Source: Schmidtea nova
Taxonomy: Eukaryota
Reading direction: 5' to 3'
DNA: 64,000 nucleotides
Assembly: GCA_044892505.1 (NCBI GenBank)
Contig: CM097884.1
Coordinates: 62,001-126,000 of the forward strand
Under the pieces are notes generated by a model, which was not told the origin of the DNA, did not search any database, and saw only the letters and a list, made by a program, of their open reading frames with translations. Both the position numbers and the translations under genes were made by a program. Each line of letters begins with the position of its first letter. Position 1 is the first letter of the stretch. Below are positions 27,709 to 60,792 of this stretch, piece by piece.

Positions 27709-30700
27709 CAGTGGCGGATTAAACGGTGGGCGGACTGGGCGGCCGCCCGGGGCCCACGTACTTGAAGGGCCCCCTTACAGTCTATTTTAAAGGAAAACGT
27801 CACCCGACGCACGGCGGAATTCAAAACAATCAGCTTTGACTTAGCTTAAAAAAAGAAAAAAAAAGAAACGTGATTAAACGGGTTTTTAAATATTTAAATT
27901 TTATGAAATAATTTTATATGTGGTGCTGTAAAGCTTGTAATAAATAGTAATATTATATTTATTATTTTACTTAAAGTTTAAATGCAAAATAAATGAGAAT
28001 ATATTTACATGCAATCAGTCGATTACTTTACGTATTATGTAATTAACTTTTAAGGTAAAGGTAAATTTATTAGGAAATGTTAAATTTGTGTTCCAAAATA
28101 AATGTAATAATACATTTTTTTCTTTCATTTCTGTATGATTCTTTTTAAGTTCGTAAGTATCTGCTGAAATGTCCGTCGTTTTAAATCTCACTATTTAAAT
28201 AACTTGTGTATGAAAATGATAACTTGTACCTTAACTTCGATATATTACAGAAATGTATAGAAGTTTTGATAAATAATAAAGTATTCCCTTCCACTTTTAT
28301 TCCATATTATTTATGTTTCTATTTCTTATTATTTCTATTTGTGAATTATATTTTTTGTTTTTGTGAGAACGGATATTTCATTTTGTGATTTTAAATTAAA
28401 AATTTTGTTTTTCTTTAATCATTATAATTTTTTGAACAGTTTGTTTGTGTATTTAAGATGCTAATTAAATCAATATGTTCGTTAAAACTAAAATTATGTT
28501 TTTTCATTATAGGAACATTTTAATAGAATCGTACACAATGAAAAAGTACAAATCGGGGTCAGAGAAAAGAAAAGAAATTAAACGTAGAGAAGCAATTTGT
28601 AATGAACAGAAAGATTCATTGTTGAAATTTTTAACTCCTTCTATCGAAGACACATCAGAACCGTCTACGTCTATTACATTCAATAAAAATTCAGAAAATT
28701 TTGCATTATGGGAAAATCAAGAGTTTGAAGTAGATACCGTGTCGAAACAAAATTCGAAGAATACATCAAAAATTACAGGAGAGTAAAAAACTGAATCCGA
28801 TGGAATAAGAGAAGTGTTGAAGATATTTGATGCGGAAGCAGATCAGGTACATATTATGAAAGATATTGCACTCTGGCCAAAAGTTTTAACAGACGAAATG
28901 ATAAAATTTGTAATTCTTAATAAACCAAATAACATTGGCAAAATGGAAAATTTAAAAGATTTGTATATCGATGGTACACAAACATCTTACAGAGGTTTAC
29001 AAGAGGACCATTTTTACCGAAAAATTTCTGATGGGAAAAAAGAAATGAGAAATTGGCTCATTTTATCCGAAATTTCTAAATGCATATACTGCTATCTATG
29101 TAAAATATTCCCTAGGTCGACCTCTAAGTTAACCCAAGGTTCTAAGAATTGGAGGCATGTTACAGAAGCTTTATCAGGACACGAAGTTTCAAAGGAGCAT
29201 ATAACTTCTATGTGTTCATTATACAGGTGCTCTTCAACATTAAATCGAATTGATGCAAAAATAGTACAGCAAACACTAAAGGAACAAAATTATTGGAGAG
29301 ATGTCTTACGAAGGCTAATATCGACAATAAAATTAATTGCAAGTCTCGGTAAAGGATTTAGAGGACACGATGAAAGCCAGACTTCTAATAGAAAAGACAA
29401 TTATTTAACGTGCTTGGAATATCTAAGTGAGTATGACTAATTTTTAAAATTACATTTGGATACGTATGGTAATCGTGGACGAGGAAATGCCAACTATTTA
29501 TCTCATCATATATGCGATGAATTTATAAAAACTATTAGCGACTCTGTTTTGGCTCTTATAGTAGAGGAAATAAAAGCTGCAAATTTTTACAGCATTATTG
29601 TAGATTCGACACCGGATATTTCTCACGTTGATCAGCTGACTTTTATTTTCCGATATGTGCTGTCAACTGGAGTTATTAAAGAGAGATTCGTAGGTTACCT
29701 TCCCATTGAAAAGCATGACGCTGCATATTTAGAAGAACAAGTGTGTGCAAAGTTAAAAACTATGCAAATTGATATTAAACTTTGTAGAGGACAGTCATTC
29801 GATAATGCTGCAAATATGTCTGGGAGATACACAGGATTACAAAGTCGTATTAAAAAGCATAGCCTGACAGCCGTCTATATTCCTTGTTCCACACATTCGT
29901 TAAACCTTATTGGTAACTTTGCAGCAGAAAGTTGTAGTAGTGCAACTCGATATTTTGTATTCGTACAAAATTTATTCACCTTCTTTAATGCTTCCATCCA
30001 TCGATGGAATATTTTATGGAAAAAACTTCAAGATTGTGACAGAAAATTGTCAATAAAAAAGTTATCTGATACGAGATAGTCCGCAAGGGCGGACGCGTTT
30101 CTGGCCCTAAAATGTGGATATCATAAAATTAAGGAAGTACTGATTGATTTAAGTAATTCGACAAATGAAAAGAAATTAACAGTAATTGAAGCGGAATCTT
30201 TGCTAAAAAATATGAATAAATATGAAACTGTTTTGATGACGATTATTTGGAACAGGATTATGCAGAGAGTAAATGCTACTAGTAAATCCTTGCAATCAGC
30301 AGAGTAAACTGTGCTTCACGGTGTATCTATACTAAATTCACTAGAAACTTTAATAAACAATTCAGAAAAGAATTTGAAATTGTTGAAAAAGAAGCCAAAA
30401 ATTATACAAATAGTGAATTTGAAGAAAGAAGAATGAAAAAGCGAAAACTTTCATTTGATGAAAAACGCGATACCGATCACCTATTTACTGTAAGAGAAGA
30501 TTTCATATATAATACATTCTATACAATCTGTGATCACTTGTTAACAGAATTTTGCCGCAGAAAAAAAGCATATGAAGATATTTTGCAAAATTTCAAAATA
30601 TTTTTCGATCTTTCTCTGCCAGAAAATGGAAAAAAAGAATGTGTGAAAAACCTCAAAGAAACATACGAGAAGGATATCAATAAATATCAATTCGAAGATG

Positions 30701-31299: not shown

Positions 31300-34200
31300 G
31301 ATTAGTAGACTCTAAAATCCTAAAAATTCAATTTTTTAAAATAAACTTGTTAGAGGCAAATAAATCGCATTCATTATTTTCCTTTTGAATTTGATTACTT
31401 GGCTTATAATTCCTAATTTTAGAGTCTCAAACAACTTCACAATCAAGTGATATGCTATTTAAACAAATATTTCTACTCGAGGCTATTTTTTAATTTCGAA
31501 ATAAGTATCTGTGAGAGAAGCAGGAAAAGATATATATTCGAGCAAAATTGAAAGAAAATTCAAAACTCGAAATCTAAATTAAATCAATAAAATCAAATAG
31601 TCTACAATATAAATAAATCACCCTAGCGTAAAGATCTTATCAGTGACCCTGATCAATTTCGAGTAGGTAGCGATCAGTAATAAATCATTATCGATTTTTT
31701 AACAAATATACTTTTGCAAGTCAGTTCTCTTTGCAAAATCTTATCTACCCTTGTAGGTTTTCATTTTCCGAGGTCACATAAATAAGTTTTGGAGTTAACT
31801 TTACTTCTACGAAACCCATATGGGTAAATGTTCACAATAGTTATTGTGATCATTTTAATACTTTAATGATTTGATACTTCGACCATTCATGACACCACTC
31901 CATTTGCAATTAAAAAATATTTGATATTTATCATGAACACAATTGATAGTTTAGATAGATTTTTTAATAACCTTTCGACAATTAATATCTCATAGTAAAA
32001 ATATTTTATTTTTCTCTCAGGTATATAAACTAGAATTTTGAATAAACAATGGAAAGTTAAAGCATTGCTGAGAAAGAAAGAGACCGAACATCAAAATGAG
32101 CACATATCACCTATCGATAGTCCTTGAACCCATAGAAATTTATCGATCAATTAATGTTCTGATAAGAGCGCTCATTTTTAAGAGTATTTCGCCCAATAGT
32201 TACATTGCCAAAACTATAAGTCATCGTGAGCTCACTTCTACCTACTGCTGGCTACATTATGCAATAATAAAATCTTCTTTGGAGTAAAAAAAATTGATTT
32301 CAACCTGTTTCTAAAGAAATACTTATAATAATGTACAGTTATACGGACTAACAATAATTTTTTATGCAATATTCTGTCTTGTGAGATAAAGAAGGTATTA
32401 AAACATTAACTCAAATTCTTTGAAGAATATCTATGGCCTTGAGTTGTATTAAGATTAAACCCAGTCTCGTCTAGATAGAATTGATTAAATAAATTAACAT
32501 TTATATCAATAATCGAAAATGTACTCCTAACTTATAATATTTGGAAATCAGCGACGACTGTAATTTCTTTACTTTTTTCCAAATTTAATTTTCTAAGGCT
32601 TTTTGATACATCAGATCACGAATTTGTAATATATTGGCTAACAAGTACTTCAGTTAATTCTTTTTGAGTAAAAAGAGGATCATCCTGAACTGAATTAGAA
32701 ATAATTTTCATAGTACACGAAAGCGCAATTAGTTACTTGCCTGATTTTTAAGGAATTGTATTTTATTTCAATCGTTTTCATCGCAAATATCAATTTTTCT
32801 AAAGCAACTATAAACAGTTTGTTCTGATAATTGAACAACTCTTGCTATCTCCTTTGCACTGTTTATATCCTCTAATATTTTTATATTTTTTTCTAATTTC
32901 TTTATGCCTACTGATGTTCATTTTTCGGAATTACATTGAAATAACTTCCGTTGAATCATTATTTGTCATGTTATGACATAAATTAATTTGATCCACAGAT
33001 ATTAGACATAATTGATTTTAGACAAAAATGTTTTTAGACATAAATGCTTTTAGACATAATTGATTTTCGACATAATTGTTTTTGAGTTTTAAAATTTCAA
33101 ACCGTTAAATATGCCGAGTGTAGCGAAAACCAGAGAAGGAAAGCTTATGCTTGTAGACGATGAATTTGAGTATCATTTAAACTCAAAAACACATCAAGCA
33201 ATAAAGCATACTGGTCATGTACGAAAAAAAGATGTTTGTAAAGCCAGGCTAGTAACAAATTTTGATGTTGAGCAAGAGATAATTGTTTTTAAATCCACGA
33301 ACCACGTGCACTTGGGAGATCCTTCAAGTAAACTTGTCAGATCACTGTCAAACACAATGAGGGGAAAGGCAAAGATGTTTCCAAATGTTGCACCATCTGC
33401 AATTATTAGAGAAGAGCTTCGAGAAGTAGGATATTCGGAAGTGATTTTAGATATACCTGAGACTTGTACGCTTATAAGAATGGCTAATAGAGCTCAAAAC
33501 TCTACAAGGCCTAAGTTACCTGTTTCTTTAGCGGAATGTAAAATTGCATTTTCTTATAATCAAACAATATCTGGAGACCTCTTTCTGAGATTTGACTCGG
33601 GTGCAACCGATCCCAATCGAATATTAATATTTTATTCTGACGTTGGCTTAAGTTCTTTGTCAAGAAACAGCCAAGTATTTGGAGATGGTACTTTTGATAC
33701 CGTTCCGTCTATATTTTTCAGCTTTATACAATACATGGAAACATTTTTGGCTTTAGCTTTCCATGTGCATATGTACTATGTTCTCGTAAGAATCAAACAA
33801 CATATGACTTAATTTACTCTCGTATTATAGATGCAGTGGCAAGCACAGGCGTGACATTTAATCCTGAAGTACTAATGATTGATTTTGAAATTGCCGCTAT
33901 CAATGCATTGAAAAATATGATTCCTAATACGCTTGTAAAAGGATATTTATTTCATTTAAACCAGTCATGTGGAGAAAAATTCAAGAAGTTGGTTTATCGG
34001 AGTAGTAGGAGGACATGAGGAGTCTGGATCCGTATGAGTTATCGCGCGTTTTTTGGCGACATTTTTAAAGTGTGTTTTGTTTAAATGTTTGGAATTTATT
34101 ATTATTTTTATTTTATTATTATTTTATTTATTTATTATTTTTAAATTATATTATTTTTTTTTTAATTAGTTATTTATTTTTTAAATATTATTAATTTACT

Positions 34201-34483
34201 TTTGTTAGTATAATTTATTATTGTTATTATAATTTTTGAAACACTTCAATGATAAACGTTATATGAAAGCACTACTCAAAATATTTTAAGAATATATCAC
34301 ATGGTGAAATACGATAAATATTAAACTAATTATTTATTATTATTATTATTAATATTACTATTATTTCTATGACGTAACCATAGTTTCTAAAAATTATTAC
34401 CCAAATTATAAAAACAGACTGAAACTAATCTGTACAATATATAACTAAATAATTAAAAAACAAAGTTTTTCAATAAATTTTAT

Positions 34484-37400
34484 TTAAACAAAACTTTCAT
34501 CTTGGATATCTCCAGGTGGATCTTGGAATTGTTGATCTGGATTGATTCTTGGATCGGTATGTTGAAATATAACCAAGTCACCTTCCATATAATGGCCATA
34601 TGCCAAGCTTTTATTTTTCGCCACCCATTTCCTTTTATCATCTGCGTTTGTTAGTGCAGTCTTTTCATGTTTAATAGTAAAAAGTTGGTGATTTTTACTT
34701 GTGATTCTCGTTTGGGGAACAGAAAATATTTGGTTATTATTAAAACAGTCCAGGTACGACTGATGCTTTATGTCAGTACCCGCTAATGTTGCCCCCTTAG
34801 CTTTATTAGTTTCCTTGTCACCTAAAAGACTATAACATTTAGGTCTAAGAAACACCCACTCCTCGTATTTAAGCCCTTTATTCTCATCTTTGAACTTGCC
34901 AATGACAGAATCAAGGTTCCTACTGTATAGTGGGTGATTCGGATCGTAATTAGAAGTGTCAAGTAAGTTATCTCTTATCATGGCCGGTAAAAGAATATCA
35001 AGCTTACAATTTCTAATCTCAAGAAAAAACGAATCGGTGTCACCAGCTACGATGTTAATTTCGCAGTTGAATTCGTTACGATATTTTTGTAACTCTTCAT
35101 ACTGCAGCTGGTACATTCTAAGTTTAGATAGATCCAGTACAGTTTGACCAATGTAGTTGGGTCTATCCAAACACACCGATTCCTGATTCAGCAAGACGGC
35201 AACCAAATCATCGTCAATTTCGAAAGTCCTTTTAAAAGTTGGCTTAGAAGTATATGTAATCAGCCTAGAAGCCGAATTACATAATCTTAAATTTATGCGC
35301 TTTTTAAGATTCTCTATGGTTTTACCGTAGAGACTATTATTTAATAATTTATAATAATTTTTACCCAGAGCATTACTTGATTCTGCTCTAAGTCTGGTAT
35401 TGGTATCGATGTAATCCTTAAAAATACATGCTTGTTTAAATTTAATTGCCCTATGGACATGAGTTATTTTTACTCCAAGAGAAAGAAAAAGTTTGAGAAG
35501 TCTCCAATGAAGAACATAGTTCTTCTTGGGATAATGCGTAAGCATCAACTTCTCAACCTTTGAGCCAGGTGGACACATCTTTTCAGCGGCAACTGGCAAA
35601 TCATCCAGCTTGTCGTGAATCGAATCAGGAATTTCTAAATCGACTTCTAATGTAAATCCAAATGTTAATACTTCTAAATCAGCAGATTCACAGTAATAAA
35701 TTATTTTATTTAATTTTTCCCTATCAGTTACCCATTTAAATTCTTTATAAGGTAGTTTTTGGCTTAAAGCCCACCCATATAAATTATTTATATCTATATA
35801 AAGAAGCTCAATGTCGTCGGAGGATACTACATGGTGTTTGTTAACAAATGTTAACCCACCACGGATCCCCCCTTCGAAAAAATTATACATCTCCATATCT
35901 TGAAACAACTCGATAGGAAATTTCAAAGTCATCAAAGCTGAATTCCATGACATGCCTGGAATTCCCAAGAAATTAAGAGGCTCAAGTCGGTTATGTGCAA
36001 TGGATTTTGCCCTAAATTGCTGAAAAAAGTCGGCAAGTAAGAAAACATCCAATTTCAGGTATAACATCATATAATCAAACAATGTTTCACAATTAAATTC
36101 ATCCCATATATGTTGAGCTTTTTCATACTCATCGATATTAACTCCTTCCCAAATCGGTGGCAACTCGTATGTATTTTGTAAAACCTCTAAAGAAGTTGCA
36201 AAATTATATGGGAATATGCCTTTGGATGTAATAATAGTCCCTATAAATTCGGATGAAGTAAGAGGAAAATCTGTTAAAGTCTTTACAGCATCGTTTAAGC
36301 TACAGCTTACAAATTGGCAAGAATCGATAAATTTAATAGTTAAACTATCGACTCTTGCATATAAGGTCAAAAACTTTTCACTGGTAGTAGGAATACAACT
36401 TATATCCCATTTATCGAATTTATTTAAACCATACTTGAGAATATGATGTAAATCATATCCGCGTAAATTATGAAATAGTACAGGCATAATGAATCTTATT
36501 TGCCGAGAAAAATTGCATTTAGAGCAAGCTGCACCCAAGTATTTACCTGTATAATGGTCATGATCTTTAACCGGATTTTTCAAAGGTTTATTACACAAAT
36601 AACAAATTATAGAACTACGAAATGATCTTATTTGTGCAGGAGAAAGATATTCCATTTTCTTTTTGGAATTATTTATAAAGTAAGGTAAAACTACTTTTTC
36701 TCCTATATCATTGATTTCAGTCAAAAACTCTTCTACACAGTTAAGACCATAAAAGCTTTTATACGATTTTTCGCCAGTAAAGTTATTAATAAGCAACAAG
36801 CCAGCAGAAATAGGTAAGTGGCGTTGAAAATACTTATCGTCCTTGGGTAAAACAGCCTCAAAATCGGCATATACAACGAAAGGAGGGGTAACAATTTTTG
36901 ACCAATCTTTAAATTCCAAGTTCTTATCTGAAGGCAAAGTGTACAAAGTTGTACCTAACTGATTTTTTGTGCATAAAGTCTGATGTTTCTCAAAAGCTTC
37001 AGTCAATCTAAAACCATTCAAGCAGCGCTCACACCAAATGCTCTGAACCCTAACATTGGTAACCAAAGAATTTCTACAATTCAAAAGCCTGTCAAGATTG
37101 GTAACTGCAATATAATGAAAAGAGTCACTTTCCTCTAACAAAATCAAATTAATTGGAGTGCCACCTACAACCTTTGACCTATGAATAATATCTACAAATG
37201 GATGTTTCATGACTTCCTCTTCCTCAGTAATATAATTTAGATCATACTCGTCATATGAAAGAATATTTATTGCCAACCAGGGGTTTTTCGCTTCAAATTT
37301 GGGTATATTACATAATTTCATAGGAAGATCAGAAGGATCAAACACAAGGTCTGAGGGATTATAATTATAAGACTTACTTCTATTAGATTTCACATCCTTG

Positions 37401-38185
37401 TATTTTAAAATTGCCAAAATACTATATATAAAACACAATTTATCTGTATTCTTTACATTGACAGTGCAATGTTTTGCCTTTAATGATGGTGGGGTTGAAC
37501 AAGAACCGTGACCACTCAATCTACTTATTTGCGAATATTTTGTAAGTTTAAAGCTTATTTCCTTAATTTTATTTATTGACCAATTGCTGCCATTTTCGCA
37601 GACTTTAGTCATTTTTTCACTTAATAGAGCAATACCTTCATCTAAAAAGGTATCACTCATTGGTTTTGCAGAATTTGATATTATAAAAGATTGAAATTGC
37701 TTATTCTTTTCAAATTCTACATCAATGCAAAATTGTACTTTTACATACCCCATTTTGGAAATAACTGAATTAAATTTATTTAATAAAGGTGAAGGAATAA
37801 TTAATTTATTTAAATTTAAAGAATCCACATCCATTTTAACAATGGCATGCGATTTTTTCAAATTATATTTAACCAAAGGTTCAACAGAACCGCCATATTG
37901 GACAACATGTAAATTAGGAATAACTAAAACATCGTCATTTGATGAATGGACATCTTCATCATCAGATATTACATTTATTTTAGTCGGTTTAGGACAAATA
38001 GTAACATTTCGTCGTTTACATTTATTAATTAATGCGAAAAGACTTTTCTTAGTGCATGTGAATTGATTTAAATGGAGATAATGTTGGAAATAAAAATCAA
38101 TGTAATTTATATGTTGGGAGCTCTTACATGTGGGACATAAATAGAAGGTGACTTGGTTATTTATAATATGATAGTATCGCTCCAT
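34484..38185 (-). CDS. Protein-primed family B DNA polymerase (Polinton pPolB), left-arm copy; probable upstream exons 38873-38822, 38778-38725, 38680-38576, main exon from 38241
   Basis: 1233-aa open ORF; Exo I YADFE, Exo II FHNLRGYD, endonuclease-VII-like insert CYLC...DHDHYTGKYLGAACSKCN, Pol motifs YIDINNLYG, KLLNNSLYGK, GDTDS, KAKG. Confidence 0.96.
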   Translation of the reverse strand: MERYYHIINNQVTFYLCPTCKSSQHINYIDFYFQHYLHLNQFTCTKKSLFALINKCKRRNVTICPKPTKINVISDDEDVHSSNDDVLVIPNLHVVQYGGSVEPLVKYNLKKSHAIVKMDVDSLNLNKLIIPSPLLNKFNSVISKMGYVKVQFCIDVEFEKNKQFQSFIISNSAKPMSDTFLDEGIALLSEKMTKVCENGSNWSINKIKEISFKLTKYSQISRLSGHGSCSTPPSLKAKHCTVNVKNTDKLCFIYSILAILKYKDVKSNRSKSYNYNPSDLVFDPSDLPMKLCNIPKFEAKNPWLAINILSYDEYDLNYITEEEEVMKHPFVDIIHRSKVVGGTPINLILLEESDSFHYIAVTNLDRLLNCRNSLVTNVRVQSIWCERCLNGFRLTEAFEKHQTLCTKNQLGTTLYTLPSDKNLEFKDWSKIVTPPFVVYADFEAVLPKDDKYFQRHLPISAGLLLINNFTGEKSYKSFYGLNCVEEFLTEINDIGEKVVLPYFINNSKKKMEYLSPAQIRSFRSSIICYLCNKPLKNPVKDHDHYTGKYLGAACSKCNFSRQIRFIMPVLFHNLRGYDLHHILKYGLNKFDKWDISCIPTTSEKFLTLYARVDSLTIKFIDSCQFVSCSLNDAVKTLTDFPLTSSEFIGTIITSKGIFPYNFATSLEVLQNTYELPPIWEGVNIDEYEKAQHIWDEFNCETLFDYMMLYLKLDVFLLADFFQQFRAKSIAHNRLEPLNFLGIPGMSWNSALMTLKFPIELFQDMEMYNFFEGGIRGGLTFVNKHHVVSSDDIELLYIDINNLYGWALSQKLPYKEFKWVTDREKLNKIIYYCESADLEVLTFGFTLEVDLEIPDSIHDKLDDLPVAAEKMCPPGSKVEKLMLTHYPKKNYVLHWRLLKLFLSLGVKITHVHRAIKFKQACIFKDYIDTNTRLRAESSNALGKNYYKLLNNSLYGKTIENLKKRINLRLCNSASRLITYTSKPTFKRTFEIDDDLVAVLLNQESVCLDRPNYIGQTVLDLSKLRMYQLQYEELQKYRNEFNCEINIVAGDTDSFFLEIRNCKLDILLPAMIRDNLLDTSNYDPNHPLYSRNLDSVIGKFKDENKGLKYEEWVFLRPKCYSLLGDKETNKAKGATLAGTDIKHQSYLDCFNNNQIFSVPQTRITSKNHQLFTIKHEKTALTNADDKRKWVAKNKSLAYGHYMEGDLVIFQHTDPRINPDQQFQDPPGDIQDESFV

Positions 38186-40749
38186 TAATTTGTGGCAATC
38201 GTTATGATTTGACGACTTACAATAATTCGCATAAAATTTACCTTAATATGAAATATCTTTAAATTTATCAAAAAATCATTAAAATAAATTAATAGAGATA
38301 TGAATTATTAGAAAATAAATATGAAATTTAAGATAAATATGATTTAAATATAATAATTACTAAAATAATTTAAATTTAATATAAAACTTATTACAAAATA
38401 ATATTAAAGGAATTTGTTTAAATTAAATGTTTACGTAAAGTAAAGATTATTTAAATTATTACAAAATATTACCAAAATTATATATTTACAAATATTTTAC
38501 TAAAGTTATTTACTAAATTGATTAAAATAATTATCGAAATATAATTAAAATTAATTAAAATTAATCAATACTTACATTGAACATTCAATACCACATCAGG
38601 TATAACTCCATTATTCACAATATTCTCGTTATTAACAATCTCAGCTTGTACGGTAGTTTGTTCAGTCATATTTGCATCCCCTAAAGTAAAAGTTAAATAA
38701 TTTATTAAGTTAATGATCAAGTACCATTTTCTTCTGTATTTTCTAACATCGATTTCCCAATTGCATTATTGATATTACCTAAATTAATACTAAATGATAA
38801 TAAATTAAAAAATAAATTTACCATTTTCTTTCCCACTTGGGTTTTCGTTCATAAAACTTGTTATCATGTTCATTTTTAATGTTTATTATTTGTTAAAGTG
38901 AATAATGAATGAAAAAGGTTTGTTTATATATCAAAGTTATTACACACACATAACCTTTGACCAATAAAAATCGAGTAAGGGGTAGGAAATTTATTCTTAT
39001 TAGCCAATCAGAATCGAGTAAGAGGCAGTAAAGGTATTATTATCATTAGATAGAGAATTATGACTAATTATATATTACGTTGCAGTATTTTAAAAAAACT
39101 AGAAAAGTTATTTCAACAAATTATAATACACATCAAAGTTATAAAATATTTCAATGAATTGCATGCATGTCATATGATTAAAATATATTAGACTAAATAT
39201 TTCAGTAAATTACGTCTAAATTATATTACAATTCAATAATTACGTCAGTTATAAAAAATATTTTAATTAATTTTGATAAAATACATTAGAATTGTCAATA
39301 ACACACACAAAACTTTTATAATTTTCATTAGTATAGAAATTAAATTATATCTACACATGATTACAATAAATATTCGATAAATCTATGCTAAATAGTCGAA
39401 AAAATCCAGTATTTTATTACAAAACACGTGTGTAACACGAAAAACGACAACTTTTAGATTTCGAATCAAGCCATTTTATAGAAATTTAAATTTTATCTAT
39501 ACTTTATTACAATGAAAACTCAATAAATTTATTTTATATACACGAAAAATGCAAAATTAATTACAAAACACGTGTGTATTACAAACACACTAGCAAACTA
39601 ATTTTCTAATCAAGCCATTTTATAGGAAATTAAATTTTACTTATACTTTATTACAATGAAAACTCAATAAATTTATTTTATATACACAAAAAATGCAAAA
39701 TTAATTACAAAACACGTGTGTATTACAAAATACGACAACTTTCAGATTTCTAATAAAGCCATTTTGTAGACATTTAAATTTTACACATATAATATTACAA
39801 GGAAAACTCAAAAAAGTTATTTTATATACATGAAAAATGTAAAATTAATTACAAAACACGTGTGCATTACAAACACACCAACAAACTAATTTTCTAATCA
39901 AGCCATTTTATAGGAAATTAAATTTTACCTATACTTTATTACAATGAAAACTCACTAAAGTTACTTTATATTGTTAAAAATTTGAAAATTCAAAATAAAA
40001 CACGTGTGCATCGCAAAATACGACAACCGTCAGAATTCCAATAAAGCCATTTTGTAGACATTTAAATTTTATACATATAATATTACAATGAAAACTCAAA
40101 AAAGTTATTTTATTTAGGTGAAATATAGAAATTTAATGACAAAACACGTGTGCACAACAATATACACAACATTTTGAATTTTTAATTCAGCCATTTTGTA
40201 GACAATAAAATTCTGTCTATCTATTGTTTCACTAAAAACTCGATCGGGCCGGTTTATCGACTCGAAAAAGGCGTTTGAAGGTTTGTAGTAGGAGGCTATG
40301 TCCGGTCTGCCGCCCCCCCCCATGTGTGAACTCAAATACTTTTTTATTAAATTTAAAATAAAATTTTATATTTAAAAAAATTAAAACAAAAAATTCATAT
40401 AATTAAATAAAATATTCTAGTTATTTAAAACAAAAATTTCACTTAATTTAAACAAAAATTCACTTAATTTTAAAAAAAAATTCACTCAATTTAAAAAATA
40501 TACGAAATTACGTAATTATATACAAAATTACATAATTATCGGGTTTTATTGAGCACACTTGATTACGCAATGATTACGTAACTATGTGTGCTACATAAAA
40601 CCCCGAGCGATTACGTAATATACACACATGGGGGGTAGTGGCGCAGACAGGACACATCCTCCTACTACAAACCTTCAAACGCCTTTTTCGAGTCGATAAA
40701 CCGGCCCGATCGAGTTTTTAGTGAAACAATAGATAGACAGAATTTTATT

Positions 40750-41540
40750 GTCTACAAAATGGCTGAATTAAAAATTCAAAATGTTGTGTATATTGTTGTG
40801 CACACGTGTTTTGTCATTAAATTTCTATATTTCACCTAAATAAAATAACTTTTTTGAGTTTTCATTGTAATATTATATGTATAAAATTTAAATGTCTACA
40901 AAATGGCTTTATTGGAATTCTGACGGTTGTCGTATTTTGCGATGCACACGTGTTTTATTTTGAATTTTCAAATTTTTAACAATATAAAGTAACTTTAGTG
41001 AGTTTTCATTGTAATAAAGTATAGGTAAAATTTAATTTCCTATAAAATGGCTTGATTAGAAAATTAGTTTGTTGGTGTGTTTGTAATGCACACGTGTTTT
41101 GTAATTAATTTTACATTTTTCATGTATATAAAATAACTTTTTTGAGTTTTCCTTGTAATATTATATGTGTAAAATTTAAATGTCTACAAAATGGCTTTAT
41201 TAGAAATCTGAAAGTTGTCGTATTTTGTAATACACACGTGTTTTGTAATTAATTTTGCATTTTTTGTGTATATAAAATAAATTTATTGAGTTTTCATTGT
41301 AATAAAGTATAAGTAAAATTTAATTTCCTATAAAATGGCTTGATTAGAAAATTAGTTTGCTAGTGTGTTTGTAATACACACGTGTTTTGTAATTAATTTT
41401 GCATTTTTCGTGTATATAAAATAAATTTATTGAGTTTTCATTGTAATAAAGTATAGATAAAATTTAAATTTCTATAAAATGGCTTGATTCGAAATCTAAA
41501 AGTTGTCGTTTTTCGTGTTACACACGTGTTTTGTAATAAA
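40750..41540 (+). repeat. Six-copy 144-bp tandem array (mirrored at ~39413-40203) with CACGTG and AAAATGGC in every unit
   Basis: CACGTG at 40803, 40947, 41091, 41235, 41379, 41523; AAAATGGC at 40756, 40900, 41044, 41188, 41332, 41476. Confidence 0.92.
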
Positions 41541-41930
41541 ATACTGGATTTTTTCGACTATTTAGCATAGATTTATCGAATATTTATTGTAATCATGTGT
41601 AGATATAATTTAATTTCTATACTAATGAAAATTATAAAAGTTTTGTGTGTGTTATTGACAATTCTAATGTATTTTATCAAAATTAATTAAAATATTTTTT
41701 ATAACTGACGTAATTATTGAATTGTAATATAATTTAGACGTAATTTACTGAAATATTTAGTCTAATATATTTTAATCATATGACATGCATGCAATTCATT
41801 GAAATATTTTATAACTTTGATGTGTATTATAATTTGTTGAAATAACTTTTCTAGTTTTTTTAAAATACTGCAACGTAATATATAATTAGTCATAATTCTC
41901 TATCTAATGATAATAATACCTTTACTGCCT

Positions 41931-42030
41931 CTTACTCGATTCTGATTGGCTAATAAGAATAAATTTCCTACCCCTTACTCGATTTTTATTGGTCAAAGGT
42001 TATGTGTGTGTAATAACTTTGATATATAAA
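41931..42030 (+). promoter_or_regulatory. Putative PolB promoter: two inverted CCAAT boxes plus TATA (mirrored in left arm)
   Basis: Duplicated CTTACTCGATT..ATTGG modules 43 bp apart (ATTGG at 41945 and 41988); TATATAAA at 42023, ~50 nt upstream of ATG 42080. Confidence 0.6.
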
Positions 42031-42767
42031 CAAACCTTTTTCATTCATTATTCACTTTAACAAATAATAAACATTAAAAATGAACATGATAACAAGTTTT
42101 ATGAACGAAAACCCAAGTGGGAAAGAAAATGGTAAATTTATTTTTTAATTTATTATCATTTAGTATTAATTTAGGTAATATCAATAATGCAATTGGGAAA
42201 TCGATGTTAGAAAATACAGAAGAAAATGGTACTTGATCATTAACTTAATAAATTATTTAACTTTTACTTTAGGGGATGCAAATATGACTGAACAAACTAC
42301 CGTACAAGCTGAGATTGTTAATAACGAGAATATTGTGAATAATGGAGTTATACCTGATGTGGTATTGAATGTTCAATGTAAGTATTGATTAATTTTAATT
42401 AATTTTAATTATATTTCGATAATTATTTTAATCAATTTAGTAAATAACTTTAGTAAAATATTTGTAAATATATAATTTTGGTAATATTTTGTAATAATTT
42501 AAATAATCTTTACTTTACGTAAACATTTAATTTAAACAAATTCCTTTAATATTATTTTGTAATAAGTTTTATATTAAATTTAAATTATTTTAGTAATTAT
42601 TATATTTAAATCATATTTATCTTAAATTTCATATTTATTTTCTAATAATTCATATCTCTATTAATTTATTTTAATGATTTTTTGATAAATTTAAAGATAT
42701 TTCATATTAAGGTAAATTTTATGCGAATTATTGTAAGTCGTCAAATCATAACGATTGCCACAAATTA

Positions 42768-45700
42768 ATGGAGCGATACTATCATATTATAAATAACCAA
42801 GTCACCTTCTATTTATGTCCCACATGTAAGAGCTCCCAACATATAAATTACATTGATTTTTATTTCCAACATTATCTCCATTTAAATCAATTCACATGCA
42901 CTAAGAAAAGTCTTTTCGCATTAATTAATAAATGTAAACGACGAAATGTTACTATTTGTCCTAAACCGACTAAAATAAATGTAATATCTGATGATGAAGA
43001 TGTCCATTCATCAAATGACGATGTTTTAGTTATTCCTAATTTACATGTTGTCCAATATGGCGGTTCTGTTGAACCTTTGGTTAAATATAATTTGAAAAAA
43101 TCGCATGCCATTGTTAAAATGGATGTGGATTCTTTAAATTTAAATAAATTAATTATTCCTTCACCTTTATTAAATAAATTTAATTCAGTTATTTCCAAAA
43201 TGGGGTATGTAAAAGTACAATTTTGCATTGATGTAGAATTTGAAAAGAATAAGCAATTTCAATCTTTTATAATATCAAATTCTGCAAAACCAATGAGTGA
43301 TACCTTTTTAGATGAAGGTATTGCTCTATTAAGTGAAAAAATGACTAAAGTCTGCGAAAATGGCAGCAATTGGTCAATAAATAAAATTAAGGAAATAAGC
43401 TTTAAACTTACAAAATATTCGCAAATAAGTAGATTGAGTGGTCACGGTTCTTGTTCAACCCCACCATCATTAAAGGCAAAACATTGCACTGTCAATGTAA
43501 AGAATACAGATAAATTGTGTTTTATATATAGTATTTTGGCAATTTTAAAATACAAGGATGTGAAATCTAATAGAAGTAAGTCTTATAATTATAATCCCTC
43601 AGACCTTGTGTTTGATCCTTCTGATCTTCCTATGAAATTATGTAATATACCCAAATTTGAAGCGAAAAACCCCTGGTTGGCAATAAATATTCTTTCATAT
43701 GACGAGTATGATCTAAATTATATTACTGAGGAAGAGGAAGTCATGAAACATCCATTTGTAGATATTATTCATAGGTCAAAGGTTGTAGGTGGCACTCCAA
43801 TTAATTTGATTTTGTTAGAGGAAAGTGACTCTTTTCATTATATTGCAGTTACCAATCTTGACAGGCTTTTGAATTGTAGAAATTCTTTGGTTACCAATGT
43901 TAGGGTTCAGAGCATTTGGTGTGAGCGTTGCTTGAATGATTTTAGATTGACTGAAGCTTTTGAGAAACATCAGACTTTATGCACAAAAAATCAGTTAGGT
44001 ACAACTTTGTACACTTTGCCTTCAGATAAGAACTTGGAATTTAAAGATTGGTCAAAAATTGTTACCCCTCCTTTCGTTGTATATGCCGATTTTGAGGCTG
44101 TTTTACCCAAGGACGATAAGTATTTTCAACGCCACTTACCTATTTCTGCTGGCTTGTTGCTTATTAATAACTTTACTGGCGAAAAATCGTATAAAAGCTT
44201 TTATGGTCTTAACTGTGTAGAAGAGTTTTTGACTGAAATCAATGATATAGGAGAAAAAGTAGTTTTACCTTACTTTATAAATAATTCCAAAAAGAAAATG
44301 GAATATCTTTCTCCTGCACAAATAAGATCATTTCGTAGTTCTATAATTTGTTATTTGTGTAATAAACCTTTGAAAAATCCGGTTAAAGATCATGACCATT
44401 ATACAGGTAAATACTTGGGTGCAGCTTGCTCTAAATGCAATTTTTCTCGGCAAATAAGATTCATTATGCCTGTACTATTTCATAATTTACGCGGATATGA
44501 TTTACATCATATTCTCAAGTATGGTTTAAATAAATTCGATAAATGGGATATAAGTTGTATTCCTACTACCAGTGAAAAGTTTTTGACCTTATATGCAAGA
44601 GTCGATAGTTTAACTATTAAATTTATCGATTCTTGCCAATTTGTAAGCTGTAGCTTAAACGATGCTGTAAAGACTTTAACAGATTTTCCTCTTACTTCAT
44701 CCGAATTTATAGGGACTATTATTACATCCAAAGGCATATTCCCATATAATTTTGCAACTTCTTTAGAGGTTTTACAAAATACATACGAGTTGCCACCGAT
44801 TTGGGAAGGAGTTAATATCGATGAGTATGAAAAAGCTCAACATATATGGGATGAATTTAATTGTGAAACATTGTTTGATTATATGATGTTATACCTGAAA
44901 TTGGATGTTTTCTTACTTGCCGACTTTTTTCAGCAATTTAGGGCAAAATCCATTGCACATAACCGACTTGAGCCTCTTAATTTCTTGGGAATTCCAGGCA
45001 TGTCATGGAATTCAGCTTTGATGACTTTGAAATTTCCTATCGAGTTGTTTCAAGATATGGAGATGTATAATTTTTTCGAAGGGGGGATCCGTGGTGGGTT
45101 AACATTTGTTAACAAACACCATGTAGTATCCTCCGACGACATTGAGCTTCTTTATATAGATATAAATAATTTATATGGGTGGGCTTTAAGCCAAAAACTA
45201 CCTTATAAAGAATTTAAATGGGTAACTGATAGGGAAAAATTAAATAAAATAATTTATTACTGTGAATCTGCTGATTTAGAAGTATTAACATTTGGATTTA
45301 CATTAGAAGTCGATTTAGAAATTCCTGATTCGATTCACGACAAGCTGGATGATTTGCCAGTTGCCGCTGAAAAGATGTGTCCACCTGGCTCAAAGGTTGA
45401 GAAGTTGATGCTTACGCATTATCCCAAGAAGAACTATGTTCTTCATTGGAGACTTCTCAAACTTTTTCTTTCTCTTGGAGTAAAAATAACTCATGTCCAT
45501 AGGGCAATTAAATTTAAACAAGCATGTATTTTTAAGGATTACATCGATACCAATACCAGACTTAGAGCAGAATCAAGTAATGCTCTGGGTAAAAATTATT
45601 ATAAATTATTAAATAATAGTCTCTACGGTAAAACCATAGAGAATCTTAAAAAGCGCATAAATTTAAGATTATGTAATTCGGCTTCTAGGCTGATTACATA

Positions 45701-55455: not shown

Positions 55456-55938
55456 TTAAACAAAATTAAATAATAAATCGAGATATTTTTCATCAATTAA
55501 ATCATTATTGATTAATGAATTAATATAATTTTTAATTTCATTTACTTGATTAAAATAATCCAATGTTTTAATTCCTAATATTACAACTTTTCCACTTGAA
55601 AAAATATTAATACAAATCGGGTTATAATTTATTAATCTTAAAGCTGGAAATATTTCGGGTTCGTACCAGCACTCTGTTTTATTTTGCAATTCATATAAAT
55701 TTATGGATTTACCCATATCCAATGTTATAGTGATCGATTGAATTTTTAAATCTGAAATTTTATATTTCAAATCATCTGGTTTTAACGGTTGCTTACAACC
55801 CATTACACGGCATTTTCCCGATCTGAAAAATAAAATAGGATACTTTCCGCTCCTATCTATAACTTGCTGGGGTTTCCCAACAGGAAATAACATGTTTGGA
55901 ACTAAACACTTGCCCATATAATTAATATTACTTATCAT
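55456..55938 (-). CDS. TATA-box-binding protein (TBP)-like protein, ~160 aa
   Basis: Two TBP repeats: ISNINY...ILFFRSGKCRVMGCK and KIQSITITLDM...INLYEL...WYEPEIFPALRL...INIFSSGKVVILGIK (canonical YEPELFPGL...LIFVSGKVVLTGAK); first ATG at 55938. Confidence 0.85.
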   Translation of the reverse strand: MISNINYMGKCLVPNMLFPVGKPQQVIDRSGKYPILFFRSGKCRVMGCKQPLKPDDLKYKISDLKIQSITITLDMGKSINLYELQNKTECWYEPEIFPALRLINYNPICINIFSSGKVVILGIKTLDYFNQVNEIKNYINSLINNDLIDEKYLDLLFNFV

Positions 55939-55997
55939 TTTTATAAATTGAATAAATATAAACAATATTAAATTAATTAATAATTAATTAAATAAAA

Positions 55998-56621
55998 ATG
56001 GAATTAAGAAATGATGCAGTTTATCAAATAGTGGGCCCAAGTGGTAGTGGAAAAACATTATTTGTATGTAAATTGTTGCAATCAAAAATGTTTAAATCTA
56101 AATTCAATAAAATTTACTGGCATCGGGGAGCTGATGAAGAACATGGACTGACTCAAGATCAATTCTGTAAATTAAAAATGACAATTATAAAAGGGTTTGA
56201 TAAAAACTGGTCATCTAGACTACGACAAGGCGATGTTATAATTATCGATGATTTGTACCAAGAAGCAAATAAAGAAAAAGATTTTAATAATTTATTCACA
56301 AAAATTAGTAGACATTTAGGAGTTACTGTAATTTTCATTACTCAAAATTTATTTCATCAAGGTGGTAGTCACAGAACTCGTAATTTAAATGTTCAATATT
56401 TGGTTATATTCAAAAACCCAAGAGATGCTACAATTATTGATTTTCTAGCAAGACAAGCTTACCCTAATGATAGGAAATTCTTAATTAATTCATTTCAAGA
56501 TGCTACTAAAGTTCCTCATGGATATTTATTCTTTGATTTTACTCAACAATGTCCTGATGATTTACGTATCCGAACGGATATATTTAACGAAAAAGGAGTC
56601 ACGGTTTATAAACAAAATTGA
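55998..56621 (+). CDS. Polinton genome-packaging ATPase (A32/FtsK-like)
   Basis: Walker A GPSGSGKT, Walker B IIIDD, SRH, FITQNLF, R..NLN..YLVIFKNPRD; open 207-aa ORF. Confidence 0.93.
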   Translation: MELRNDAVYQIVGPSGSGKTLFVCKLLQSKMFKSKFNKIYWHRGADEEHGLTQDQFCKLKMTIIKGFDKNWSSRLRQGDVIIIDDLYQEANKEKDFNNLFTKISRHLGVTVIFITQNLFHQGGSHRTRNLNVQYLVIFKNPRDATIIDFLARQAYPNDRKFLINSFQDATKVPHGYLFFDFTQQCPDDLRIRTDIFNEKGVTVYKQN

Positions 56622-56642
56622 AAACAAATAAATGAAATAATA

Positions 56643-56828
56643 ATGTCATTTAAAAAAGTAATTGTCAAGTTAAATAAAGAAGCTGTTCAAAAAGCTGATC
56701 AAAAACTACTTTAAAAAGTTGATCAAAAACTTCTTAAAAAAGTTGATCAAAAATCTAAATTAGTTAAAAAAGTTGTCAAAAAGATTGGTAAAAGAAAGAA
56801 ACAAGTAAAGAAGTGGATAAAATTATAA
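56643..56828 (+). pseudogene. Lys-rich small basic protein with KKVDQKLL repeats, one premature stop
   Basis: MSFKKVIVKLNKEAVQKADQKLL*KVDQKLLKKVDQKSKLVKKVVKKIGKRKKQVKKWIKL; TAA at 56712 where the sister repeat has AAA. Confidence 0.55.
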
Positions 56829-56858
56829 ACGAAATAAATATACACAAAAATTTTAATC

Positions 56859-57188
56859 ATGAAATTTGAACGTAGTTTACCGTATTTTAATGCTTTGGTT
56901 AAAGCTCCAACAAATAAGCGAATGATAATTTTACAAGCTTTCCCACCCTTTGTTATTGATGATTTACTTGAAGTCGTTTTTAATATTGTTCATGGTAATG
57001 TAAATATTAGTAGATCAAAGAAAATTGAACTACAAAAACATAAAAATTCGCTTTTATCATTAGTGAATACCAAAAATAGAAATCTTATGCGAAAAATAAT
57101 ATATAAACAAAAGGGTGGGTTTCTCGGTACATTAATTCCAATAGTATTATCATCAATAAGCGCAATCTCATCTTTAAGAAATGGGTAA
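56859..57188 (+). CDS. Polinton small virion-type protein with QKGGF motif and hydrophobic C-terminal helix
   Basis: Open 109-aa ORF inside the structural cassette; ...L.EVVFNIVHGNV...QKGGFLGTLIPIV. Confidence 0.65.
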   Translation: MKFERSLPYFNALVKAPTNKRMIILQAFPPFVIDDLLEVVFNIVHGNVNISRSKKIELQKHKNSLLSLVNTKNRNLMRKIIYKQKGGFLGTLIPIVLSSISAISSLRNG

Positions 57189-57250
57189 TAAAATGTCTGA
57201 ACCGAATAAACATAATATAGATTTAAATATTTTAACAAATTGTTGTATTA

Positions 57251-58334
57251 ATGAAGAAAATCATGAAGAATATAAAAACGATATGGACAAACCCAAAAGA
57301 TCCCGATGGTTTTGGTTCAGTCAAAAAATTGGCAAAAAGAATAAAAAGTTCAAAGAATGAAACTCAGAAATGGTTATCTGATCAATTGGCATATAGTTTA
57401 AATAAACCAATGTTGAAAAGATTTCCTACACGCAAATATAAAACTTTTGGGGGTAACGATTTATGGCAAATGGATTTAATGGAAATGATTCCTTATTCTA
57501 AAATTAACAAGGGTTACAAATATATTTTGACTTGTATTGATGTTTTTAGCCGTTATGCACGAGCTATTCCAACAAAAACTAAATCTGCTAATGAAATGGC
57601 TGAGGCTATTGAATCTTTATTTAAAGATGGGAAGCCACATAATTTACAAACTGATTTGGGTAAGAAATTAAATTTTTAAAAATTAATTAATTTATTTTAG
57701 GAAAAGAGTTTTATAACAGCAAAGTAAAAGAAGTGATCAAAGGAATCAATCATTATTCTGTATTTTCTCAATTCAAAGCTGCTCATGTTGAAAGATTTAA
57801 TCGAACTTTAAGAGATCGTTTGAAAAAGTTTTTTGTGTATCAAGGTAACAAAACATGGATAAATGTTTTACCGAAATTATTTCCAGTTACAATCGTTCAC
57901 CGCATTCGGGATTAAATAAAATGAAACCTATCGATGTATATTCAAATAATAATTTTGATGGATGGATAAAAGATAGATTAAAATCAATTAATAAAAAACC
58001 GAAATATAAATTAGGCGATTATGTGAGAATGAGTAAAATCAGTGCTTCTCCCTTCATCAAAAATTTTGATAGTAATTGGAGTGATGAAGTATATCAAATC
58101 TCAAATGTTGATACTAATCAAAATCCTGTCATGTATACTATTTCCGATCATGAAAACAATGTAATCGAGGGTAAATTCTACGAACAAGAACTTCAAGTTA
58201 TTCCAGCTCCCACAGTTTTTAGAATTCAAAAGATTTTAAAAACCAAAACTGATGGGAAATATAAACAATATTACGTTAAATGGCATGGCTATGAAACTCC
58301 AAGTTGGATATCTGAAAAACAATTGATTAAATAA
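57251..58334 (+). CDS. Retroviral-type (RVE) integrase with C-terminal chromodomain; one intron (57660-57700) and a 1-nt frameshift near 57875
   Basis: WQMDL, YILTCIDVFSRYA, LQTDLG|KEFYN after splicing, VERFNRTL, KYKLGDYVRMS, YYVKWHGY. Confidence 0.9.
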
Positions 58335-58339
58335 ATATT

Positions 58340-59377
58340 ATGAAAGAAAACCAGTTTTATATGATTTTGCCTAGCAATGCATGTCCTCTTATTTATCCTA
58401 ATAATGAAGCTAGTAATTTTAATGTAGAATTTCAAAATCCGATTTATTTAAATAGTAATGACGATTGGGAAGTTGCTTTGATTGATTTTACTTTTGTGTA
58501 TAATTTGTTTCCGTATTATAGTAATTCTTTTATTCAAATTGAAACTAAAAGAGAAATTCAAGAAATTAGTTATTTGAGAATTAATAATCAAAATAAAACA
58601 ATTCAAGTTATAGTTTCTCAACCTAGTTCAGACACTGATGTATTTATTGAAAAATATAATTATTTAGTGATTGTTTGCCCACATGTTCCATTTAAAATTA
58701 CATTTCCAGATATTGAACATGCAAAAAGTTTTGGATTGGAAAATATATCAATTACAAGTGAAAATGATCATTGTCGTTTAAAATTACCAAAATTTACGAA
58801 TGATAATAGTCTTGAACAATTTGGAATTTTAATAAATTATGACATTAAAACTGTTAATGATTATTATTTTCAAGATGAATTATTCATAACGTCATTACCG
58901 GAATTGCAAGGATATTTAATGAAAATTAATCCATCTCCATTTAAAGAAATGAAACTTGTCAATAATGAATTGGTTAAAATTATTCTTCAGGATAATATTT
59001 CAAAAATTACTTTTGATTCAAATTTAACCAAATCTCTGGGTCTACAGAAACAAACATATACTGATACAGAAATAATTGGTGTAAAAATCCCCAAAATTTT
59101 ACAACTTCATCAGCAAATGTTCATTTACAGCAACATTATTGAACCAGTGACTGTTGGAGATGTACGAGTTCCCCTCCTTAAATCAATTTGGATCAAGAAA
59201 TATGACCAAGGCGAAGTTGTACAAATTGAAATAAAGAATCCAATGTATTTGCCGATTTCAACATCAACTATAAACAACATTGAAATCAATATTCGTGATG
59301 ACAGTGGAAAATTAATTAAATTTTCAAAAGATACAAAGACTCATTTGACTCTACATTTTCGTAAAATAAATGATTAA
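58340..59377 (+). CDS. Minor capsid protein (penton-like), copy 1
   Basis: FYMILPSN...N....F.V....PIYL...WEVAL N-terminus; FIYSNIIEPV.VGD..VPLL, NPMYLP, IEINIRDDSGK, LTLHFRK C-terminus. Confidence 0.82.
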   Translation: MKENQFYMILPSNACPLIYPNNEASNFNVEFQNPIYLNSNDDWEVALIDFTFVYNLFPYYSNSFIQIETKREIQEISYLRINNQNKTIQVIVSQPSSDTDVFIEKYNYLVIVCPHVPFKITFPDIEHAKSFGLENISITSENDHCRLKLPKFTNDNSLEQFGILINYDIKTVNDYYFQDELFITSLPELQGYLMKINPSPFKEMKLVNNELVKIILQDNISKITFDSNLTKSLGLQKQTYTDTEIIGVKIPKILQLHQQMFIYSNIIEPVTVGDVRVPLLKSIWIKKYDQGEVVQIEIKNPMYLPISTSTINNIEINIRDDSGKLIKFSKDTKTHLTLHFRKIND

Positions 59378-60392
59378 AAAAGATTTTTATGTTAATTTAC
59401 CAAGCAATTCTTGTCCATTGACACATCCCAATAATAAAGCTGGAAAATTCAATGTTGAATATCAAAACCCTATTTATTTGGGTGGTAGTTGGGAAGTTGC
59501 TCTTATGGATTTTACTTTTGTGTACAATGAATTTCCATTTTATAATAGTTCAAGTATAAAATTTATTAGAAATGAATTACATTCTAGTTATGAATATTTC
59601 AATTTTAACCAACAAAAGAAAGAATATGATATAAGTCACGATTCTAATTATTATTTAATGTATATTGATGGCAATATTTTAAATGTAAATTGTAAATATT
59701 TTCCATTTCAAATAATATTTGATAGTGTTGATGAAGCTAAAAAATTAGGGTTTCAAGAAAAAGCTGTGACATTTAATGATGAATTAAACAAAATTAAAAT
59801 TCCAGCAAATGAAAATAAAAAACTTGATGATACTATACGATTTACTATAACTTATACTTTTCCTGTTGAATACACAGATAATTTCAAAGACGATTTAATA
59901 ATAAATAATCTTACTGAATTATCTGATCAAATTGTAACTTTTTATCCACATCCATTTAAAGTGATTGATATTAAAGAAGGAAAATTAATTAAATTAATTC
60001 TTGAAGATGATATGACTAGTGTAAAATTTAGTATGAATTTAGCAAATTCGTTAGGATTAGTTGAACAAGAATTCTTTGACAAAATTATTGATGGCGTATA
60101 TTATCCACAAGTTTTAAAACTTCATCAACAAATGTTCATCTATACGAATATTATTCAACCAATTCTTGTTGGTGACATGTCAGTTCCCCTATTGAAATGT
60201 GTTTGGGTTGAAAAACATAAAAAGGGTGATTTGGTTCAAATTGTTGAGAAAAATCCAATGTATTTACCGGTCAGTTCCACATATATAAACAATATTGAAA
60301 TCAATATTCGTGATGACAGTGGAAAAATAGTTAAATTTGCAAAAGAAGACAAAACTTACTTGACATTACATTTCCGTAAAATAAATGAATAA
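59370..60392 (+). CDS. Minor capsid protein (penton-like), copy 2
   Basis: Same N- and C-terminal motifs as copy 1, divergent middle. Confidence 0.82.
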   Translation: MIKKDFYVNLPSNSCPLTHPNNKAGKFNVEYQNPIYLGGSWEVALMDFTFVYNEFPFYNSSSIKFIRNELHSSYEYFNFNQQKKEYDISHDSNYYLMYIDGNILNVNCKYFPFQIIFDSVDEAKKLGFQEKAVTFNDELNKIKIPANENKKLDDTIRFTITYTFPVEYTDNFKDDLIINNLTELSDQIVTFYPHPFKVIDIKEGKLIKLILEDDMTSVKFSMNLANSLGLVEQEFFDKIIDGVYYPQVLKLHQQMFIYTNIIQPILVGDMSVPLLKCVWVEKHKKGDLVQIVEKNPMYLPVSSTYINNIEINIRDDSGKIVKFAKEDKTYLTLHFRKINE

Positions 60393-60792
60393 TCCAGATA
60401 TTATCAGTTTCTATAGCAACAGCCAATCAGGTGGAGAATTACCGTATTTTGTAGGTAAGCAATATGGAACTGGTTGGTTGAAAACGATAGGTAGATTTGC
60501 ATTACCAATTCTTAGACGTATTGGAAATTTTGGTATGAAAACTGCCAATGATGTGTTAAATAATAATTCAAAGATTTTACCTGCACTAAAATCAAATGTC
60601 ATTTCTGAAATTAAAGATTCATTGCCCGATGTGATTCATCATTTGCCACAAGTAATTAGTAAAGTGACTGATGTGTTTAACGAAAATAAAACTGAAAATA
60701 AACAAAATGGCGGAATTCTTAAACGAAAAAGAAATATGAAGAAACATATAAACAAAAGAATGAAAGGATATGGAACAATATTTGAAAAATGA
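60385..60792 (+). CDS. Polinton core/maturation-type protein with QxGG motifs and an amphipathic helix
   Basis: QSGG, QYGTGWLKTIGRFALPILRRIG, QNGG, basic C-terminus; lies between the penton and MCP genes. Confidence 0.7.
   Translation: MNNPDIISFYSNSQSGGELPYFVGKQYGTGWLKTIGRFALPILRRIGNFGMKTANDVLNNNSKILPALKSNVISEIKDSLPDVIHHLPQVISKVTDVFNENKTENKQNGGILKRKRNMKKHINKRMKGYGTIFEK

Follow-up and report, generated by a model that had tools for sequence, protein, structure and literature searches.

The window analysed here, a stretch of 64,000 nucleotides from Schmidtea nova, contains an inverted repeat with arms at 34004-40295 and 40658-46949, flanked on both sides by the 6-bp TSD TATCGG, and each arm carries a single open frame of 1252 codons for a protein-primed family B polymerase (pPolB), transcribed outwards. 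The features of the locus, in window positions, are the following.

33995..34000, + strand: left TSD copy, TATCGG
34001..34026, + strand: left outer terminus, AGT followed by AGTAGGAGG-N9-GTCTG, of the family-1 outer end type
34004..40295: left palindrome arm, with 3 mismatches against the right arm
34484..38242, - strand: pPolB open frame (1252 codons) in which an endonuclease VII-like insert accompanies the exonuclease and polymerase motifs
38450..40286: central hub, left half, found in palindromes of both family 1 and family 2
38576..38669, - strand: short exon predicted by splice signals and phase to open pPolB, the mirror image of 42284-42377
39332..40212: 144-bp tandem repeats (left), about 6 diverged copies
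40287..40328, + strand: inner-left motif, in which the opening ~42-45 nt of the terminus recur in inverted form; the proposed fold-back landing pad
40329..40624: asymmetric AT-rich spacer (loop)
40574..40666, - strand: inner-right end, a genuine Polinton terminus sharing 80 of 93 nt with the autonomous end
40658..46949: right palindrome arm
40741..41621: 144-bp tandem repeats (right)
42284..42377, + strand: predicted hub-encoded first exon, 31 codons plus 1 nt, with a GTAAGT donor; the acceptor AG ends at 42711
42711..46469, + strand: second pPolB open frame, 1252 codons
46927..46949, - strand: right outer terminus
46950..46955, + strand: right TSD copy, TATCGG

The arms are 6.3 kb long and mismatched at only three positions (34945, 37014 and 37025); their symmetry is first broken at 40296/40657, with imperfect pairing onward to about 40328/40625. 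The initial annotation had placed the end of symmetry correctly, albeit calling the arms perfect, which they are not, and its inner termini are corrected here to functional ends at 40287 and 40666, a span of 380 bp, since AGTAGG opens the free ends seen at other loci and the preceding TGT is arm sequence. An extra AGT (34001) is present at the left outer end only. The 144-bp repeats (39332-40212 and 40741-41621) contain a CACACGTGTG-like palindrome, and in some copies of the element their number is unequal between the arms; Rfam gave no matches within 38200-42800. The palindrome sits just downstream of a FLYWCH-domain ORF that is probably a decayed Mutator-like transposase, and it is flanked by 16-bp tandem arrays, inverted to each other (32997-33083 and 47633-47773), which are probably subterminal repeats of a host transposon interrupted by the palindrome. 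Elsewhere the window holds a Myosin-head exon (14825-15427, - strand), a DDE_1 transposase fragment (16949-17596, + strand) and a zinc-finger/DUF4371 pair (28787-30079, + strand). A different Polinton family occupies 55035-62015 and continues in G000:C3:126001-136000 (L172); it is 70-76% identical in nucleotides to the autonomous relative described below and encodes an A32-type ATPase (55992-56621), a chromo domain (57849-58334), two paralogous ORFs (58331-59377 and 59370-60392) and a 409-aa ORF, with its pPolB lying in pieces beyond the window. The termini of this Polinton were not found.

The assignment of the long frames to the protein-primed family B polymerases is based on homologues that carry PF03175 (E ~0) and PF02945, one of which is the PolB of Ladona dragonfly adintovirus (36% identical), together with strings in the frame that we take to be the named exonuclease and polymerase motifs. 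Pfam's own pPolB model did not match the window polymerase query, the endonuclease VII match within the polymerase is weak (E = 3e-4, below the Pfam cut-off), and a close-relative scan of viral contigs returned no pPolB relatives. Apart from antisense overlaps no other frame of at least 90 codons was present in the element (34004-46949), and no integrase, ATPase, protease or capsid gene was found in that interval, whose gene content is not that of an autonomous Polinton. The polymerase frames begin right after a stop, at AG. In both palindrome families described below the hub contains a predicted 94-nt exon that is led by ATG and has a GTAAGT donor in matching phase, while the autonomous element has a different candidate exon of the same phase, and homology switches from autonomous element to hub within the predicted intron. 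We infer from these signals that the hub-encoded first exon is spliced to pPolB. Contigs of four runs (type unstated, one study) aligned to 41625-43600 gave 43 joints, and none of the 15 listed falls at the predicted intron; three runs show a dip in depth at the intron, but this is also where the region is richest in AT, and the dip is taken neither for nor against splicing.

The motif AGTAGGAGG-N9-GTCTG occurs exactly four times in the window, at 34004 (+), 40287 (+), 40644-40666 (-) and 46927-46949 (-), and not once in 100 shuffled windows, so that the inner terminus-like motifs reported initially are real. Genome-wide there are 2,114 exact matches and none to the reversed-pattern control. 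Many of these matches represent the termini of ~15-kb autonomous Polintons, of which the three examined were all flanked by TSDs and had TIRs measuring at least about 580 bp. A domain scan of one copy established the presence of integrase and A32-type ATPase domains and did not identify capsid or protease genes. The autonomous pPolB is 95-96% identical in amino acids to that of the window, and the autonomous integrase region is in two overlapping frames of 150 and 218 codons in both copies compared (L062:2016-3082, L065:4500-5566), a candidate intron or frameshift. The subterminal 20-mer of the family-1 outer end has 1,462 exact genome matches, the family-2 outer end 449, and a 22-mer specific to autonomous Polinton ends 899 exact matches; the 1,462 and 449 outer-end matches imply several hundred to about a thousand insertions. 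A 26-nt terminus word had no matches in metagenome contigs. The bases at +10 to +31 after AGTAGGAGG vary as interchangeable blocks common to outer, inner and autonomous ends, a pattern which suggests that termini of different elements may have been exchanged frequently. The loci sampled throughout were either the 40 most similar ones or the pattern matches listed first, and lie mostly on contig C1.

The palindromes fall into two families. Those of family 2 have different outer ends and a pPolB that is 58.5% identical to that of family 1, and both families have the same core and ~1.8-kb hub. In a comparison with one autonomous copy, hub similarity was confined to terminal stretches of ~93 and ~45 nt and a weak 60-nt AT-rich stretch. 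The 6-bp TSDs were present at the window copy, at 4 of 4 other family-1 palindromes tested and at 9 of 9 family-2 end pairs, in which the polymerase arm was entered from both ends. No autonomous family-2 parent was found among these nine end pairs. Thirteen arms taken in list order comprised four of family 1, eight of family 2 and one in which another Polinton was inserted in the core. At one locus (L121/L122, C1:253772000-253787000) two cores are enclosed by inverted arms of different families, one of family 2 and one of family 1, possibly an intermediate of polymerase swapping.

The initial annotation had taken the centre of the palindrome for a ~385-bp mini-Polinton, of which free copies with their own 6-bp TSD would be expected. 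Used as a genome query, the core returned 1,919 candidates, and in the 40 that were scored the match covered almost its full length at 92-100% identity; no free, TSD-flanked core was seen among 30 returned loci, most of which had an arm on both sides. From 86 distinct cores carrying both inner motifs and measuring 330-400 bp, 69 had an arm on both sides, 8 on the left only, 7 on the right only and 2 on neither, and none was free with its own TSD. The armless core closest to a free element (L030) keeps arm remnants and has no TSD, and the other (L134) carries the same 42-bp deletion abutting both inner AGTs. The inner-left motif was searched with an exact pattern, which catches only flanks without T at -3 and misses about a third of free ends; this gave 364 matches genome-wide, 359 arm-attached and 5 otherwise preceded, the latter consisting of three point changes, the L134 deletion and a single free end, which has an arm on its other side and an outer partner without a matching TSD. 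The motif resembles autonomous termini well over ~45 nt only. A free mini-Polinton was accordingly rejected, and a parental Polinton carrying the core internally fared no better, as the three autonomous Polintons carry the sequence at their termini only. The 380-bp core is instead the conserved centre of ~13-kb palindromic, polymerase-only Polinton derivatives, and its inner-left motif is not an integration end and looks like a landing pad. As a separate observation, the spacer around 40507-40522 is a repeated insertion target (L075/L076, L113, L178): a family-2 palindrome is inserted with TSD at the spacer ATTACGTAAT site, one dimer junction falls at the same ATTACGTAAT site, and another Polinton lies nearby.

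The inner-right motif is a real integration end. It is identical to the first 93 nt of an autonomous Polinton at 80 positions, and precise free inner-right ends were observed at 6 of the 86 cores, at one split core and in 5 of 40 further windows (24 of the others having an arm and 11 having lost the end), 12 in total; the imprecise ends L116 and L117, neither of which shows a TSD, were left out of this count. When followed, six of the 12 closed a unit with a 6-bp TSD, for which the chance of a 6-mer match is about 6e-4 each, two reached an outer end without TSD, and four gave no assignable unit. The six consist of a full-length monomer of 6,672 bp that is 94% identical to the window monomer over its whole length (L112), a monomer of 7,225 bp (L166), two internally rearranged monomers of about 5.2 and 6.1 kb (L257 and L258), a family-2 monomer of 6,793 bp whose TSD lies inside a TTA repeat and is therefore weak (L168), and a hybrid with an autonomous-type left end. 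Given the TSD-bounded 6.67-kb monomers, the outer-left/inner-right unit therefore exists. Among the nested units initially envisaged it is this one, of ~6.67 kb and with 6-bp TSDs, that stands, whereas inner-left/outer-right was encountered once and lacked a TSD, and no 0.38-kb unit had one. The family is best explained as large, non-autonomous and polymerase-only, with two forms, a monomer of ~6.7 kb and a palindromic dimer of ~13 kb. From the outer end the monomer continues through pPolB, the hub (with the predicted first exon and the 144-bp repeats), the inner-left pad and a ~330-nt spacer to the inner-right terminus. Tail-to-tail dimers folded at another point of the inner-right end also occur, one of them (L119/L120) with both cores and a TSD.

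The two arms of a dimer were compared in 93 two-armed copies (69 from the cores and 24 from the further windows). At the polymorphic sites -5, -6 and -10, which lie outside the inner AGT, left and right sides of the same copy disagree in 0, 0 and 1 of the 93, while different copies, taken pairwise from the 69, disagree in 49%, 36% and 16% of cases. Inside the motifs, left-right differences within a copy are found at many positions from +10 on (up to 87%), and only 9 of the 93 have the same first 23 nt in both inner motifs. The last 200 bp of the arm are identical within a copy in 33 of 65 cases and between copies in 1 of 400 pairs. Over whole arms, identity within a copy is 99.95% in three recent copies and 97.8% in a fourth, as against 92-94% to the window copy. 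Furthermore, private frame breaks are mirrored in both arms of four of six other mapped two-armed palindromes (C, J, M and N), the remaining two being one with both frames open and one that is asymmetric, and the 42-bp deletion of L134 is likewise a lesion mirrored on both sides. A single template has thus served for both arms, and re-synthesis has its boundary at the terminal AGTAGGAGG. The structure is family-wide and not the product of a one-off event, the arms having apparently been renewed repeatedly. Matching bases outside the motifs and differing bases inside them fit a monomer 3' end that folds on the pad and repeated recopying of the arm. In several copies (e.g. L087, L088, L106 and L181) the pad carries inner-right sequence, which one-way priming does not yield and for which repair or reverse use of the pad is therefore needed.

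In Tetrahymena the rDNA palindrome is formed by fold-back priming at a short inverted repeat, and the suggestion in the initial annotation that the same process operated here is supported by the TSD-bounded outer-left/inner-right monomers, the one-template arms and the folding of the pad. The monomers provide a free 3' end beside a short inverted repeat, at the inner-right AGT, and as far as the priming site the arm derives from a single template. The 3' end of the monomer top strand folds onto the inner-left pad (z = -7.5). In family 1 this pairing is worth -40 kcal/mol, compared with -15 for pairing to the outer end; the corresponding family-2 values are -50 and -10. In the cycle that we propose, a displaced single-stranded monomer, its outer end being dissimilar, would form no good panhandle; its 3' end would pair with the inner-left pad 380 nt away and be extended along the arm, and copying of the hairpin would produce a palindrome with two identical outer ends. 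Such equal ends would suit an integrase supplied in trans by autonomous Polintons. Protein-primed initiation at a candidate internal origin, the inner-right motif, which alone carries the ~93-nt subterminal sequence of autonomous termini, would then regenerate monomers. A racket model exists for Polinton replication, which to our knowledge has been modelled but never observed. Protein-primed strand displacement, the general basis for the steps proposed, is treated in PMC11071308. Read as it is from integrated copies, we consider this monomer/dimer cycle of fold-back on the pad and an inner-right origin to be probable.

Protein-primed production of monomers and nicking of a snapped-back dimer would lead to the same sequence outcome, and the main alternative is accordingly one in which the palindrome alone replicates: a displaced 13-kb strand snaps back, the integrase or the endonuclease VII-like domain of the polymerase cuts one strand immediately beyond the inner-right motif, in a manner akin to parvoviral terminal resolution, and the new 3' end recopies the arm, with integrated monomers arising as by-products of the nicked intermediate. 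This predicts the same AGT boundary and the same mirrored lesions, and it agrees with the preponderance of two-armed cores (69 of 86) over free-ended ones (6 of 86) and with the presence of a weak endonuclease VII match (E = 3e-4) in the polymerase. Site-specific nicking by this domain is hypothetical, however; moreover, monomers end exactly at AGT with clean TSDs, and the inner-right motif has retained ~93 nt of autonomous terminal sequence and shows the variation of true termini, as is expected of a used origin. We therefore regard replication of the palindrome alone as unlikely.

An ancient insertion of a free ~385-bp mini-Polinton beside a pPolB gene, supplying the inverted repeat, would account for a core that is bounded by inward-facing terminus-like motifs and matches autonomous termini at one end, but appears very unlikely in view of the 0 of 86 cores that are free with a TSD, the arm remnants of L030, the inner-left motif that is free once versus 359 times arm-attached, and the unequal terminus matches of ~45 nt on the left and ~93 nt on the right. 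An origin of arm identity in gene conversion between the arms after insertion, or in fold-back during assembly, with the inner motifs as inert relics, is highly improbable. Conversion tracts could stop where heterology begins (+10), but they would need to reach within 15 nt of it in all 93 copies, and TSD-bounded monomers make the inner-right motif a physical end rather than a relic. An assembly artefact was rejected on account of the copy number and the TSDs at the window copy and at the 4/4 family-1 and 9/9 family-2 palindromes.

With fold-back on the pad as the preferred reading, the family may be compared to known systems. It has the AGT-type end motifs and 6-bp TSD described for Polintons in PMC8097293, and the comparison of ends, TSD and polymerase, for which PMC6431247 was also used, places it with the Polintons/Mavericks (Polintoviricetes, endonuclease-bearing pPolB type), which share the AGT ends, the 6-bp TSD and a pPolB of ~1250 aa. 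In contrast to Polintons, the window palindrome has no integrase, ATPase or other long ORF, its 6.3-kb arms hold the whole polymerase gene and exceed the 100-1,500 bp given for Polinton TIRs in PMC10748475, and its family has an internal second pair of terminal motifs and both monomer and dimer forms. In yeast and in mammalian palindromic amplification, a long palindrome is primed by a 3' end that folds back at an adjacent inverted repeat of ~42 bp (PMC7999016); the repeat in the window element is similar in size (~42-45 nt), although that process involves a chromosome break and host enzymes and occurs once, whereas here it is the element's own terminus that is used, recurrently, across hundreds of mobile copies. 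Parvoviruses such as AAV likewise have a self-priming 3' end and monomer and head-to-head dimer forms (PMC11575299, PMC10924063), a likeness that is limited by the absence from the window family of a T-shaped ITR and of a Rep/HUH nicking protein, the element having no second long ORF, by its own protein-primed polymerase, and by the dimer rather than the monomer being the main integrated form. Neither a palindromic two-polymerase Polinton nor self-copying of a Polinton by fold-back was found in the literature searched (including 10.1101/2024.01.15.575659), although Repbase, subscription journals and supplements may hold one.

A broader view, which we put forward tentatively and at slightly less than even odds, is that the hub may be a satellite module that takes over polymerase exons, together with the outer ends, from different Polinton families through recombination inside the pPolB intron, and that the resulting polymerase-only replicons may cycle between a protein-primed monomer and a self-primed dimer. 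If true, this would constitute a Polinton-derived, plasmid-like or defective-interfering class of replicon in an animal, and hub capture would be one way in which Polintons come to swap polymerases, as they are seen to do; with a hub common to two polymerases that are 58.5% identical, there is a concrete mechanism by which Polinton lineages could exchange them. The genome retains what appear to be replication intermediates, namely monomers, dimers, mis-folded dimers and a nucleotide-sharp re-synthesis boundary, and a Polinton terminus may serve both as internal origin and as self-primer, thereby linking protein-primed with hairpin-primed replication in one element. With many insertions being near-perfect palindromes of 13 kb, the family is also likely to destabilise the genome and to give rise to double-stranded RNA.
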